From an uncultured Clostridium sp. (GTDB lineage Bacteria > Bacillota > Clostridia > TANB77 > CAG-508): 64,000 bases of DNA. The notes under the pieces are model-generated. The model did not search any database. It was given only the letters and a program-made list of their open reading frames with translations, and was not told the origin of the DNA. The translations under genes and the position numbers were made by a program. Within the stretch, counting starts at the first letter, position 1; every line of letters starts with the position of its first letter. The stretch is from positions 11,902 through 75,901 of the forward strand of contig CANOWW010000006.1 of assembly GCA_947571115.1 (NCBI GenBank), in the 5' to 3' direction. This document shows positions 31,954-43,760 of this stretch, piece after piece.

Positions 31954-33366
31954 TTAAAATCCAATTTTTCGCTTATTTTCAGCTTGATATTTACTTAAAT
32001 TTCTCTGCTTTAACATTTCTATATCCTCCAAAACAATCTCATTTGTATTTTTCAAATCATTATTTTTTGTTACTCGACTTGCTTGTATTATTTTCAGTTG
32101 CTCTGCAATATTTCTAATTTCTCTTGCATTTCCAAAATTTTTAACTTTTCTAATATCCAAAAAGTATTGAGTTAAGACCTGTTTACATTTTTCATTCACA
32201 AACAAATTATCTTCTTCTAAATACTTTTCAAATATTGCAAAAAGTTCATCATTTGTATAATTTTCAAAATCTATCACAAAATTTACTCTACTTTTCAAAC
32301 CTGAATTCATTTCAATAAATTCCTTCATCTCATTTGTATAACCTGCGAAAATGACGCAAAGTTTATCTTTTCGATTTTCCATTTCACGAATTAAAATATC
32401 AATCACATTATGTCCGTAATCTCTTGAATATTTATCTGAATAAAGTGAATATGCTTCGTCAATAAACAAGATTCCACCTGTTGCTTTTTCAATTATCTGC
32501 ATCGTCTTTTCTTCGGTTTCTCCAATATGTCTGCCAACCAAATCTGCTCTTGTCACTTCCACAAAAATTTTTTCATTACTTAATATTTTCATTTCAGATA
32601 ATATTTCTCCAAACAACCTTGCAACTGTCGTTTTTCCTGTTCCTGGATTGCCAAGAAAAAACATATGCAACATTGGAATCTTATTTTTAAATTTTTGCAA
32701 TTTCAAATAAGCAATAATCTCATTTAACGTTGTTTTTACTTTTGATAAACCAACTAATTTTTGCAATTCTTCCATTGCATTTTTTGTTTTCTCTTCTTTT
32801 AAAAATTCTGCAAAATAACTGTCTTTCACAATGTGGCTTTTCAATTTATTGGCTTCGCTACATGCTATTAAAACTGCTTTTTTAGCCTCTTGTATGTTTT
32901 GCTTAGAGAAAAACTCTAAAATATCTGAATTTTTCTCTAACTCAAAACCGTTTTCATAAATCATATTAAAAAGTATTGCCTTGTTCATTTCTTCCAAAGT
33001 TCCATTGTTTAAATCTATTATCCAATAAAAATCACTGTATCTCTTGTCTATTGGTAAAAATTTTTCTTTCGCAGTTTTGACAATATAGACATCTTCTCTA
33101 AAAGTCGTTGTAAATCTCTCGTCATTTTTAATTTCTATATAAATATCACTCAATTTACTTTTCAAAATATCTTCAATTAAACTTGCAACTTTCTCTAAAT
33201 AAATTTGCGTATAATCATTGATTACCACATGATAATTCTTGATTGAAAAATCCTTTTCAACCGTTAAATCAACATATTTTAAATAATGATATAATTCTCT
33301 TTTGGCTTTTTCATGAATTGCTAAAGCACGAATTTTCTTTTTGATTGCTCTATTTGGGTTCATCAT
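31954..33366 (-). CDS. SpoVK/CbbX-type AAA+ ATPase
   Basis: Walker A GNPGTGKTTVARLFGEIL, Walker B ILFIDEAYSL and arginine finger region. N-terminal helical domain. Length 470 aa. Confidence 0.7.
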   Translation of the reverse strand: MMNPNRAIKKKIRALAIHEKAKRELYHYLKYVDLTVEKDFSIKNYHVVINDYTQIYLEKVASLIEDILKSKLSDIYIEIKNDERFTTTFREDVYIVKTAKEKFLPIDKRYSDFYWIIDLNNGTLEEMNKAILFNMIYENGFELEKNSDILEFFSKQNIQEAKKAVLIACSEANKLKSHIVKDSYFAEFLKEEKTKNAMEELQKLVGLSKVKTTLNEIIAYLKLQKFKNKIPMLHMFFLGNPGTGKTTVARLFGEILSEMKILSNEKIFVEVTRADLVGRHIGETEEKTMQIIEKATGGILFIDEAYSLYSDKYSRDYGHNVIDILIREMENRKDKLCVIFAGYTNEMKEFIEMNSGLKSRVNFVIDFENYTNDELFAIFEKYLEEDNLFVNEKCKQVLTQYFLDIRKVKNFGNAREIRNIAEQLKIIQASRVTKNNDLKNTNEIVLEDIEMLKQRNLSKYQAENKRKIGF

Positions 33367-33653
33367 TAATCTTTATCCAACATTCTTAATATTCTAAAAC
33401 AATTTTTATAGCCTTGTTTGTATAAAAACATACTTTCTATATACATTAATTCATAAAAGCAATCAAAAAACTCGTCTTCCAATTTATCTTTATCCTTCTT
33501 ATCTTTTATCAAATCATTTAGAAATTTATGTAATTTTTCTAGTAAATCTCTATATTTCTCATTTTTCTTTTGTACTATTCTACTATATTCATTTTTGCTT
33601 TCCTGTAGAAAATAATCAATATTTTCCTGAAATTCATCTCTTAATTTTGTCAT
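33366..33653 (-). CDS. Small hypothetical protein (95 aa), translationally coupled to the AAA+ ATPase
   Basis: Its stop overlaps the downstream AAA+ start at 33366. Alpha-helical and charged. Confidence 0.4.
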   Translation of the reverse strand: MTKLRDEFQENIDYFLQESKNEYSRIVQKKNEKYRDLLEKLHKFLNDLIKDKKDKDKLEDEFFDCFYELMYIESMFLYKQGYKNCFRILRMLDKD

Positions 33654-33801
33654 AAAAATCCTCTCCTTTTTAAAAAATTTTCAAATTTTAGTTGAAAGTA
33701 GAGGACTACATATGCTATAATATTTATGTAGTTCTACTTTCAGTAGGACTGCCTTTGGAAGCGGTGTCGGAAAGGTTTGGCTACCAAGACACCTCTTCTT
33801 T

Positions 33802-34026
33802 TTATTTGTCCAATTTTCTAATTCCTCTACGAATACCTTCCATTTTTGAAATATTTTCCTTTTTGCAATAATTTTCCAATATCTCAAAAGTATCTTTATC
33901 CATTCTTACTGCAAGTCTAATATTCTTAGGGTTATCTGTTGGACGTCCTAACTTTTTGTTAGCCATTTTTCCTCCCTTCTTTTTGGCTGCCATAAATATA
34001 TTAACATTTTGGTCACCAAAAGTCAA
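33802..34026 (-). CDS. Ribbon-helix-helix (CopG-like) DNA-binding protein
   Basis: The likely real start is MANKKLGRPTDNPKNIRLAVRMDKDTFEILENYCKKENISKMEGIRRGIRKL, at about 33946. It shows the typical RHH beta-strand plus two helices. Confidence 0.45.
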   Translation of the reverse strand: MTFGDQNVNIFMAAKKKGGKMANKKLGRPTDNPKNIRLAVRMDKDTFEILENYCKKENISKMEGIRRGIRKLDK

Positions 34027-34126
34027 GGATTTTTTTAATTTTTTCTAAAAGTAGGATAAATTTCAAATCACTGGGTGATTTCTTACCATTTTTACTCCTA
34101 TTTTTAAATTTGTAAACATAAGCAAA

Positions 34127-41910: not shown

Positions 41911-42041
41911 TAATCCTTCATAGCAATTGCCATCTTTCGTGACATCATATATTAAATCTTGTTTATAATATTGATATCCTCTTTTTAAAATTTCCCATCA
42001 AATAAATCTTCAAACTTTAACTCCATAAATTTCCTCTTTCA

Positions 42042-43151
42042 TTAATACCAACCAAAATAACTTCCATACTTATCTAGCTTACTATTCTTATTATCCATAG
42101 AATCCTTATGTTCTCTTTTTCCAAGCAACTCATCTTCCTCATCTATAATCGGATCAAGCCAATTCGCCTTTTTATTCGCCCATATAATCCACTCTTTCGT
42201 TTCCTCACTAGACTTACTTTGATTTGATACCGCCTGAATATAATTTCTAATCTCACATGCAATCTTGTAATCTTCAGCCATATTCACTAATTCTTTAACT
42301 TTATTAGCCTCATTCTTTTTTCTATTTCTAATTTCTTCTTCTCGCTGTTTTTCTTCTCTTTGTACTCTCTCTCTTTCTTCTCGTTCTAATCTTTGAATTT
42401 TTACCCCTTCAGACTTTTCATATAATTTTATAATAATATCACCTAATCTATCTTCTAACTTAACTTTATCCGTATCTTTTATATAATTTCTAGTTCCAAA
42501 CGTTATTTTTAGTTTTCCATTATATACATAATCATACTTTCGTATTGTTGGTTTTGAGGCATACGACCAATTTTTCTTTTCATCTTCATATTTAATCAAT
42601 TGCTGAGCTTCCTCTTTTGTTAATTCATGTTTCACTTTATCTTTTAATTCTTCTATTTCAATTGTAACTAATTCATCACGTATTTTTAATGAAAAATCAT
42701 TTTTTACCTCTCCTCCAAGTTCCTCTATTGCATAATAAATACAACTCAAAATTTTCATACATCTATCTTTTTGAAACTTTGAGACATTAACAAAATATCC
42801 ACTTTCCACATAATCATGAATATTATAATATGGATTATAATAATTTCTTTTTCTTTCTTCTCTTCTATCTTCCTTTATTTTATTTTTATAACTAGTTATT
42901 ACTTTATGATTATTTCTATATTTATTTACATTTAAATCAAAAATAACTGTTGCTACTCTATCTTTCTCTACATCATCCAGAAAATTTAAATAATTAAATT
43001 CTTGAATAAACTTTTCCTTTTCATTTATGCTATCATTTTTAGAATTAACTAATAGAGCATCTCTATTTAAAAATAATTCTACTTCCTTTTTATCAGATTC
43101 TGGTAATTGGACAATATCCTTCGTAATATCCAACCCCATTTTCCTTTTCAT
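42042..43151 (-). CDS. Hypothetical protein (369 aa) with a highly charged coiled-coil segment
   Basis: The segment QRLEREERERVQREEKQREEEIRNRKKNEANKVKE is highly charged. No recognisable catalytic motif was found. Confidence 0.35.
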   Translation of the reverse strand: MKRKMGLDITKDIVQLPESDKKEVELFLNRDALLVNSKNDSINEKEKFIQEFNYLNFLDDVEKDRVATVIFDLNVNKYRNNHKVITSYKNKIKEDRREERKRNYYNPYYNIHDYVESGYFVNVSKFQKDRCMKILSCIYYAIEELGGEVKNDFSLKIRDELVTIEIEELKDKVKHELTKEEAQQLIKYEDEKKNWSYASKPTIRKYDYVYNGKLKITFGTRNYIKDTDKVKLEDRLGDIIIKLYEKSEGVKIQRLEREERERVQREEKQREEEIRNRKKNEANKVKELVNMAEDYKIACEIRNYIQAVSNQSKSSEETKEWIIWANKKANWLDPIIDEEDELLGKREHKDSMDNKNSKLDKYGSYFGWY

Positions 43152-43385
43152 CCAATAAGCTGATGTAGAATATGGAATATGATTATCTTTGCAAGATTGT
43201 ACTAATTTCGAATAATTTAAATTATACTTTTTAGCAACACCTGATCATGAAATCTCCCAAATTTCATGATATAATTTTTCTCTTTCAAGTATAATAGAAC
43301 TATTACTCATAATAATCTTCCTTTCCTTCATACATCTTTTCAGTATCTTTATATTTTCCCAGCGAAAATGCATATTCATATAATT

Positions 43386-43760
43386 CTAAGTCTCTTGTTC
43401 TGCATTTTCGCTTAATATAAAAGGCAAATCATTTTTCATCATTTCAAATTCTTTCACAATAGCATTTAAACTATTTTCTATATTTTGTACTCTAATTTCA
43501 GATATCTTTCCATATTTATAAGCAATGAGCCTTTCTGCAATTATATGATAAGACCAACTTTCAGAATAATGTCTATCTTTTTCCTTATTATGAATAACAA
43601 ACCCTATTGGCAATAGATTATTTCTCATACCAATTGAAACTGCCATAGACGAAATTCCTAAATAATCACCTGCTATTTTACAAGTTATTTTTGATTTATT
43701 TCTAATATCTTCATCGTATATTTCCCCATATTCTATTTCTCCTCTCATATATCTTTTCAA
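43386..43760 (-). CDS. Hypothetical protein (124 aa)
   Basis: An intact ORF at the right end of the element. Confidence 0.3.
   Translation of the reverse strand: MKRYMRGEIEYGEIYDEDIRNKSKITCKIAGDYLGISSMAVSIGMRNNLLPIGFVIHNKEKDRHYSESWSYHIIAERLIAYKYGKISEIRVQNIENSLNAIVKEFEMMKNDLPFILSENAEQET

Follow-up and report, generated by a model that had tools for sequence, protein, structure and literature searches.

A conserved gene trio with a CbbX-type AAA+ ATPase, probably a backbone module of a decaying integrative element in uncultured Clostridia

A stretch of 64,000 nucleotides from a metagenome-assembled Clostridia contig, hereafter the window (uncultured Clostridium sp., assembly GCA_947571115.1, contig CANOWW010000006.1, positions 11,902 to 75,901 of the forward strand), has been analyzed with a focus on positions 31954-43760, which an initial annotation made from the letters alone had described as a mosaic of candidate defense pairs inside a mobile element. 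The explanation that we consider probable, taken as a whole and short of confidence, is that this interval is the interior of a low-GC integrative element of about 14.5 kb (about 30.0-44.5 kb) in the genome of an uncultured member of the gut Clostridia, that the element is now immobile and decaying, and that three of its genes, RHH54, sm95 and AAA470, form a repressor-gated protein-remodeling module of the element backbone, a role favored over anti-phage defense. The GC profile of the window has revealed a block with a GC fraction of 0.24-0.30 between flanks of 0.30-0.39, and every gene between 30.1 and 43.8 kb is carried by the minus strand. The element would be organized as two backbone-derived modules at its ends with unrelated cargo in between. 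The recombinase-proximal end would be the operon RHH54-sm95-AAA470, and the far end would comprise an XRE regulator, p124 and a nonsense-truncated cc420 gene, with a DUF1016 protein (PDC-S02), a degraded Gabija-like module, a kinase-GNAT-hydrolase block and a frameshifted orphan SWIM gene as cargo.

The AAA470 gene (31954-33366, minus strand) encodes a CbbX/SpoVK-type AAA+ ATPase of 470 amino acids recognized by the Pfam domains AAA and AAA_lid_6, with the AAA+ module at residues ~195-455 and an orphan alpha/beta N-domain at residues 1-190. Both domains expected for the CbbX/SpoVK/EccA type scored above their cut-offs (PF00004, 65.5 bits versus 21.2; PF17866, 42.5 bits versus 24.3). The scores against the NCBIfam equivalogs, in contrast, were all far under the cut-offs (TIGR02881, 236.6 versus 422.95; TIGR02880, 226.4 versus 459.25; TIGR03922, 199 versus 466.65), and by these profile scores the protein is not SpoVK, CbbX or EccA proper. 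The structure prediction and Foldseek search proposed with the initial annotation gave an AlphaFold2 (AF2) model of pLDDT 85 whose C-terminal module has CbbX 3SYL as best match (38% identity, E 5e-23, TM-score 0.73 on target). The catalytic motifs are complete (Walker A GNPGTGKT, Walker B ILFIDEAY, arginine finger KSRV, sensor 2 GNAREIRN) and are kept among the full-length orthologues, and the eight AAA470 orthologues all have RHIG as pore loop 1, with a histidine in place of the tyrosine of the aligned relatives.

A query of residues 1-215, N-domain included, recovered its own cluster only in an exhaustive phmmer search of 1.8 billion representatives, and a profile search of the PDB with the N-domain gave no significant match. 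Its interpretation as a degenerate D1 AAA domain is not claimed: the profile-profile comparison with double-AAA SpoVK relatives matched the linker helix only (residues 191-225), and the other indications are the AF2 topology, long Foldseek alignments to p97 and Rix7 with high root-mean-square deviation, and a MAFFT alignment that puts the YHVVINDY strand on the D1 P-loop, all of which form a weaker basis. The search of BFVD returned nothing but generic AAA proteins of giant viruses. In literature searches on CbbX, SpoVK or AAA_lid_6 in defense or integrative and mobilizable element (IME) settings, the sole find was the SpoVK-like ATPase of CoCoNuT extensions.

Directly upstream, sm95 (33366-33653, minus strand) encodes an acidic protein of 95 amino acids (pI 5.9), the partner of AAA470. 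Its stop codon and the AAA470 start codon share one nucleotide (TAATG), as had been noticed initially, an arrangement of translational coupling. No significant match of sm95 was found in Pfam, PADLOC or PDB, and its only similarity was a weak match to phrog_28204. A role as excisionase has been rejected, because sm95 is acidic and the neighboring integrases have been exchanged between tyrosine and serine types. The first gene of the trio, RHH54 (33802-33966, minus strand), encodes a basic protein of 54 amino acids (pI 10.0), an Arc/CopG-like ribbon-helix-helix (RHH) repressor matched by phrog_876 (E = 1e-14, annotated as transcriptional repressor) and by the NCBIfam aCcr1 RHH domain. It consists of the bare DNA-binding fold, lacking a C-terminal toxin-binding extension. 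Relatives of RHH54 on plasmids and phage-plasmids of C. perfringens were found in unrelated contexts and were uninformative.

Sequence analysis upstream of RHH54 located a promoter, P1, with two palindromic operators (33981-34027, minus strand). P1 has the -35 box CTTGACT (34021-34027) and the extended -10 box TGTTAATAT (33998-34006), and the 15-nucleotide palindromes O1 (TTTTGGTGACCAAAA, 34007-34021) and O2 (33981-33995) flank the -10 box. A -35 box TTGACT followed by an extended -10 box was present upstream of RHH54 in every element carrying the trio, and a 9-bp palindromic operator particular to each element occurs three times, twice around the -10 box of P1 and once in the spacer between RHH54 and sm95. 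The operator core is TGGYNRCCA in the window, TGACWGTCA in the loci L028 and L058, and TGTCKGACA in L008, L009 and L013, and the differences in the RHH beta-strand among elements coincide with these three operator specificity classes. Together, the operators and RHH54 have the predicted signature of a specific autorepressor.

The spacer of 148 nucleotides (33654-33801, minus strand) was recognized as conserved regulatory DNA in a six-element alignment analyzed with RNAalifold. It contains a covarying hairpin (33757-33797) with the third operator copy, O3 (33775-33787), in its loop, and the sm95 ribosome-binding site follows. The spacer also holds a near-invariant inverted repeat of ~18 bp (33694-33741), kept in L008, L009, L013, L028 and L058 and more conserved than the flanking coding sequence, and within this repeat a strong, near-consensus sigma70-like promoter (TTGAAA-18-TATAAT, 33692-33721) lies on the plus strand, antisense to the trio. 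The repeat might act in antisense control, bind a protein or be an orphan origin of transfer (oriT), among other possibilities. No match to Rfam was obtained anywhere in the element.

The order RHH54, sm95, AAA+ was kept in six of six distinct contexts, and in all six elements sm95 (50-74% identity) is immediately upstream of the AAA+ gene. The ratios of non-synonymous to synonymous substitutions (dN/dS) were 0.14-0.22 for AAA470, 0.02-0.17 for sm95 and 0.08 for RHH54, indicating purifying selection. Full-length AAA470 orthologues are few: the N-domain is confined to a single 50%-identity cluster among 1.8 billion representatives, and AAA470 occurs in one of 185,579 species genomes, a metagenome-assembled genome (MAG) of Eubacteriales, which provided the only locus of the genome scan, with no full-length member in phages, plasmids or IMG/VR.

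The same genomic slot is occupied by the trio in four IMEs (L008, L009, L013/14 and L028), which share the layout Rep, MobC, relaxase, RHH54, sm95, AAA+, tyrosine integrase. In three of these four IMEs the layout is complete, with a leading HTH_17 gene and a Rep protein of ~597 amino acids; the Rep homologue of L009 has 418 amino acids. The gaps between the AAA+ and integrase genes are 16-58 nucleotides in L009 and L008. Identities between the IMEs were 68-81% for Rep, 65-80% for MobC, 59-85% for the relaxase and 64-77% for the AAA+ protein, compared with 28-37% for the integrase (except for the pair L028-L014, 77%), and therefore the divergence of the trio has kept pace with that of the replication and mobilization backbone, whereas integrase modules have been exchanged. 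The partner of the trio in the window is instead a serine recombinase. The variable cargo of the trio-bearing IMEs is located at the opposite end and includes a 97%-identical DUF1016 gene, an MmeI-type restriction-modification (RM) system, a Fic gene and a sigma/anti-sigma pair, and the trio was not encountered among this cargo. The nearest plasmid relaxases were 43% identical, too distant to judge whether the trio is dispensable.

The AAA+/small-protein pair put forward initially as a plausible novel two-gene system is thus conserved and translationally coupled in six of six contexts, but it belongs to a trio with RHH54, and its defense role is possible but not indicated, because the trio is a long-term resident of the IME backbone that co-diverges with Rep, MobC and relaxase.

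Two further observations concern the elements that carry the trio. In L028 (11576-16297), two opposed tyrosine integrase genes come after the trio-bearing IME, as does a second DUF6076 gene, an arrangement that suggests tandem elements sharing one integration hotspot in the Eubacteriales MAG. In addition, a block encoding SLFN_AlbA_2/HATPase_c_4/Fic-like_C and AAA_21 proteins is common to L016 (1010-3752) and L058 (2573-5269) with 82% identity, adjoining a zinc-finger-less SWIM remnant in L016 and the AAA+ trio in L058; modules therefore reshuffle freely among these elements.

In the proposed mechanism, RHH54 would repress the operon, and derepression would lead to co-translation of sm95 and AAA470. 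AAA470 would then form a CbbX-like hexamer that remodels a client protein, sm95 being either the adaptor or the client, and the trio would serve the life cycle of the element (as a regulatory switch, or in maintenance or transfer) instead of being exchangeable anti-phage cargo. This backbone role is favored because of the co-divergence with Rep and Mob proteins and the fixed slot between relaxase and integrase, together with the short gaps to the integrase gene and the lack of an effector domain.

Several points weigh against this interpretation. Exhaustive sequence, profile and fold searches gave no homology-based function for sm95, the N-domain or cc420, and the binding of RHH54 to its operators is deduced from the symmetry and co-variation of sequence only. 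The trio of the window has no Rep or Mob genes with it, and it is intact and under purifying selection despite the dead recombinase, so that a host-beneficial or addictive role fits at least as well as transfer. In L058 the trio adjoins genes of defense type (SLFN_AlbA_2, AAA_21), and the distinct contexts number six only, a small sample for stating that the trio is always part of the backbone.

The trio could alternatively be a novel anti-phage, abortive-infection or addiction module of mobile elements, in which the target sensed or remodeled by the AAA+ machine would be a protein of the phage or of the host, with sm95 as effector or adaptor, and this is distinctly less probable while still deserving serious consideration. 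Besides the missing Rep and Mob genes and the neighborhood in L058, it would account for the maintenance of the trio by selection in the comparison with L057, a second copy of the element (dN/dS 0.19 for AAA470 and 0.02 for sm95), while the recombinase died twice independently; the presence of PDC-S02 and a Gabija-like module on the same element and the weak similarity of the ATPase core to IetA and TRIP13 (PADLOC, NCBIfam) also speak for it. However, the trio belongs to no defense library, the IetA match reaches 24 bits over the generic AAA core with no IetS protease gene adjoining, and the trio shows no effector domain of nuclease, protease, membrane or NADase type. The co-divergence with Rep, MobC and relaxase in a fixed backbone slot, with variable cargo elsewhere, is also unfavorable to defense, as are the extreme narrowness of the family, its absence in full length from phages, plasmids and IMG/VR, and the frameshifts of the AAA gene in L058, where no integrase is nearby, and of sm95 in L028. 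A toxin-antitoxin system, with RHH54 as antitoxin, sm95 as toxin and AAA470 as chaperone or unfoldase, appears improbable. The palindromic operators that overlap the promoter of the RHH gene do recall the autoregulation of type II systems, and a small gene tightly coupled to that of a larger protein on a mobile element would fit. Nevertheless, sm95 matches no toxin family, and a classical type II system is unlikely because RHH54 has no C-terminal tail for toxin binding and is parted from sm95 by the conserved structured spacer (~150 nucleotides), with no direct coupling between both genes.

Going beyond the favored backbone role, it is conceivable, and we propose it tentatively, that the trio represents a new kind of element-encoded, repressor-gated AAA+ protein-remodeling system that combines a CbbX-like motor, an orphan N-domain, a histidine pore loop and a dedicated 95-amino-acid partner. 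Such a system could have a previously unrecognized anti-phage or addiction role, or could be an unfoldase for the switch or transfer of the element, for instance stripping the RHH repressor from DNA or readying the relaxase for export via the secretion channel of a helper element.

The loss of mobility is apparent at the recombinase end. A large serine recombinase pseudogene (30116-31641, minus strand; Pfam Resolvase, Recombinase and Zn_ribbon_recom), outside the interval, marks this end of the element and is broken into open reading frames (ORFs) of 320 and 191 amino acids by a 1-nucleotide deletion near 30,690, where one A has been lost in comparison with L057 (GAAGAAACA to GAAGAACA). L057 is a copy of the element with 98.6% nucleotide identity, and its recombinase gene (7136-8665) carries an independent nonsense mutation (CAA>TAA); mobility has therefore been lost at least twice. 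The comparison of both copies (31954-33653 versus 5113-8080) also revealed synonymous divergence (dS) of 0.10-0.19 in sm95, AAA470 and recombinase and of 0 in GajA, and therefore the recombinase-proximal segment has been exchanged by recombination with a diverged allele. The features that define an IME (a relaxase, accompanied by MobC or not, together with an integrase or recombinase, while conjugation machinery is lacking) are combined in the relatives L008, L009, L013 and L028; the window does not qualify, with no remnants of relaxase, MobC or Rep and with its recombinase being a pseudogene.

Three-frame translation and comparison with relatives identified five disrupted genes, those of the serine recombinase, SWIM and uvrA by frameshift, cc420 by a nonsense codon and GajA by a split, with uvrA located outside the element. 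That these disruptions are sequencing or assembly errors and the element is intact and active is hardly credible, even though the contig is metagenome-assembled and single-base indels account for several of them. The identical SWIM ORF of 204 amino acids, the coiled-coil ORF of 365/369 amino acids, the GajA split (321 + 121) and the uvrA split were also found in L002-L007, metagenome contigs from other samples and assemblers, which makes an assembly error unlikely, and the recombinase of L057 was hit by another inactivating mutation.

A SWIM zinc-finger protein at 41296-41910 and the P-loop NTPase at 40803-41294 had been proposed initially as a plausible novel two-gene system. The SWIM domain (CxCxnCxH) is indeed present (22.7 bits versus a cut-off of 19.6), but this ORF covers just the 3' portion of a gene disrupted by a frameshift (41296-42026, minus strand), as deduced by comparison with the intact protein of 236 amino acids (P0002) in L015. 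The true ATG is at 42026, a 1-nucleotide deletion near 41,994 follows codon 10, translation stops after 13 codons, and the residual ORF (204 amino acids) starts with GTG. The SWIM family comprises three sequence variants among 5.8 billion proteins, with a dN/dS of 0.38, and an in-frame loss has removed the zinc finger from variant P0003 (L016). The intact variant of L015 is followed by a different GNAT, and directly beside the variant of L016 lie a truncated Fic-like_C fragment and an AAA_21 gene.

The tightly packed genes downstream of SWIM, all on the minus strand and assigned with Pfam, encode an AAA_33 kinase (40803-41294), a GNAT (40014-40787) and a DLH-type alpha/beta hydrolase (39056-40012), and none of the three has a significant PADLOC match. 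As noted initially, the kinase ATG is 1 nucleotide past the SWIM stop codon, and the end of the SWIM ORF contains a GGAGGA ribosome-binding site for the kinase. This gap, the embedded ribosome-binding site and the shared strand, which give the appearance of one transcription unit, favor a functional SWIM-kinase system, which we nonetheless regard as very improbable. The pairing is refuted because the adjacency is not shown by relatives on either side: the kinase is beside neither of the two non-identical SWIM relatives, and no SWIM gene is near the kinase relatives (57-68% identity) of 26 metagenome loci, an outcome that the initial annotation had itself named as refuting. Also against it are the frameshift after codon 10 and the zinc-finger-less relative. 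SWIM and kinase became neighbors by chance during mosaic assembly and form no system.

The neighbors of the kinase relatives are GNAT, HIT, Acetyltransf_3, His_Phos_1 and APH genes, and in L046 and L054 these relatives are located among housekeeping-looking genes; homologues of the window GNAT (GNAT257) and hydrolase were absent from the 26 loci. The natural companion of the kinase is the downstream GNAT, and kinase, GNAT and hydrolase appear to be ordinary cargo for the modification of small molecules. A natural GNAT-AAA_33 kinase fusion of 365 amino acids, related to the window kinase and adjoining an APH-family phosphotransferase, was found in L035 (5395-6492).

At the far end, the predicted 369-amino-acid coiled-coil protein of the initial annotation exists as an ORF (42042-43151), but translation and family alignment identified it as the residue of a truncated cc420 gene (42042-43310, minus strand) with its true ATG at 43310 and an in-frame TGA at 43245-43247. 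The family has 418-421 amino acids (363 matches), and the window copy has lost the N-terminal helix-turn-helix (HTH)-like region of ~53 amino acids. Searches with Pfam, PADLOC, PDB and Foldseek gave no significant match for cc420, and its AF2 model is mediocre (pLDDT 69). Its upstream partner, p124 (43386-43760, minus strand), is an HTH-like small protein (phrog_6058, E = 4e-9), and a homologue of ~114 amino acids is immediately upstream of cc420 in ten loci (L018-L027) of two island types. RM, Gabija, TIR, AAA_21 and Macro genes abound in these loci, and SWIM occurs in none of them.

Relatives of cc420 with 35-40% identity were found on eight IMG/VR contigs. The p114 partner is kept in seven of these (58-73% identity), and on each of the eight contigs one or two large serine recombinases are located directly alongside or no more than about 3.6 kb away. 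In our reading, p124-cc420 accompanies serine-recombinase elements and is not a defense pair. In L060-L067 (IMG/VR), tandem large serine recombinases of 436-565 amino acids each lie beside the p114-cc420 homologues, a combination that seems to recur as a module of integrative elements or prophages of Clostridia type.

The cargo between both ends includes genes of defense type. The gene at 37928-38977 (minus strand) encodes a DUF1016/YhcG PD-(D/E)xK protein (Pfam YhcG_C and DUF1016_N, 5.9e-59 and 2.7e-40) that matches the PADLOC model PDLC04807 of PDC-S02 over nearly its full length (E = 1.1e-133, 444 bits, residues 17-347 on positions 11-342 of 351), so the statement that no named defense system is present does not hold for this gene. 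The PDC-S02 label is in use by defense surveys, and DUF1016 genes are known neighbors of RM systems. A 97%-identical copy is present in the unrelated cargo of L009 (1846-2862), and the 90% cluster has 233 members spread over many long contigs. Across elements whose backbone proteins share only ~78% identity, DUF1016 is 97-99% identical, which implies recent horizontal spread among gut Clostridia. To our knowledge, anti-phage activity has never been demonstrated experimentally for the PDC-S02 candidate family.

The module at 35206-37592 (minus strand) was matched by GajA and GajB in PADLOC and comprises a GajA-like OLD-family ATPase (36627-37592, 321 amino acids), a Toprim C-terminal fragment of GajA (36217-36582, 121 amino acids) and a short GajB-like UvrD-type helicase (35206-36216, 336 amino acids), all on the minus strand. 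GajA stops just ahead of the Toprim Glu region and ~60 profile positions (~356-417) are missing, so that the intact GajA followed by GajB that defines Gabija is not found here, and the module is probably non-functional. A terminator-like hairpin is located at 35188-35214.

Other genes complete the element and its surroundings. A ParB-HTH protein of 167 amino acids (34127-34630, minus strand; Pfam HTH_ParB, 24 bits) is specific to this element type, occurring only in the window, L001, L002 and L057. An XRE-family HTH regulator (44241-44516, plus strand; Pfam HTH_3) lies at the far end of the element, and GC returns to the host level beyond it. In the adjacent uvrA gene (44590-47473), an extra C in CAG(C)GGAACG, with the junction near 45,690, causes a +1 frameshift that splits the gene into ORFs of 630 and 381 amino acids, and the metagenome contig L002 shows this split as well; the abundance of nearby pseudogenes might partly be due to uvrA deficiency in the lineage. 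Directly left of the element, an ORF of 465 amino acids (28401-29798) has no Pfam match and the appearance of a repetitive immunoglobulin-like surface protein.

All the ORFs named in the initial annotation were recovered on the minus strand at the same coordinates, and its domain calls (AAA+, DUF1016/YhcG, alpha/beta hydrolase, GNAT, P-loop kinase and SWIM) were confirmed with Pfam, PADLOC, NCBIfam and PHROGs, as was the general picture of a mobile-element interior with genes of defense type, here PDC-S02/DUF1016 and a Gabija-like remnant on an integrated element. Two coupled pairs were described where three had been announced, DUF1016 being a lone gene, and the Gabija-like module, the ParB-HTH gene and the 54-amino-acid RHH gene had passed unmentioned. 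The supposed mosaic of paired systems resolves into PDC-S02, a dead Gabija-like module, enzyme cargo, two pseudogenes and two backbone-type modules, and gene adjacency in a mosaic, decaying element yielded a false SWIM-kinase pair.

The only uncharacterized conserved unit left is RHH54-sm95-AAA470, a rare unit with a CbbX-type motor and element-specific repressor/operator variants. Its setting is unexpected, as it travels with the replication and mobilization backbone of an IME family of gut Clostridia. We know of no AAA+ remodeler recognized as part of IME biology, and a role of the trio in regulation, transfer or defense would therefore add to this field in a real if modest way. The locus also provides a small test set, with an operon, its operators and intact and broken copies that can be used experimentally.

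Among the comparisons with known systems, the DUF1016 gene resembles PDC-S02 in its full-length match, its single-gene organization and its recurrence beside RM systems and in element cargo, with nothing different of note. The degraded module has the gene order and PADLOC matches of Gabija, but GajA is split with the Toprim Glu region gone, and GajB has 336 amino acids versus 592 in the intact example of L018. Bifunctional AAC-APH resistance enzymes offer an analogy for P-loop kinase/acetyltransferase clusters, which the window resembles in having the kinase directly upstream of a GNAT and in relatives fused to GNAT or near APH, HIT or His-phosphatase genes; unlike in those clusters, the window GNAT has no detectable homology to the GNATs beside the kinase relatives.

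The trio shares with IetAS an AAA+ ATPase and a partner on mobile DNA and a weak core similarity (PDLC04232, E = 5e-6; NF042959, 17 bits), but the NF042959 score is far under the cut-off of 510 bits and the partner is a helical-looking protein of 95 amino acids instead of a serine protease. With CbbX, SpoVK and EccA it shares the fold of the C-terminal module, NCBIfam scores of 199-237 bits and intact catalytic motifs, and it differs from them by the orphan N-domain of 190 amino acids, the histidine pore loop and its location in what appears to be a repressor-gated operon of a mobile element, away from any Calvin-cycle, sporulation or type VII secretion locus. Finally, RHH54 resembles Arc, Mnt and CopG in its minimal RHH fold and in the 15-nucleotide palindromes around the -10 box of its own promoter, and it departs from them in the three operator copies per element, which appear to be element-specific in three classes, and in the accompanying near-invariant 18-bp inverted repeat with an antisense promoter.

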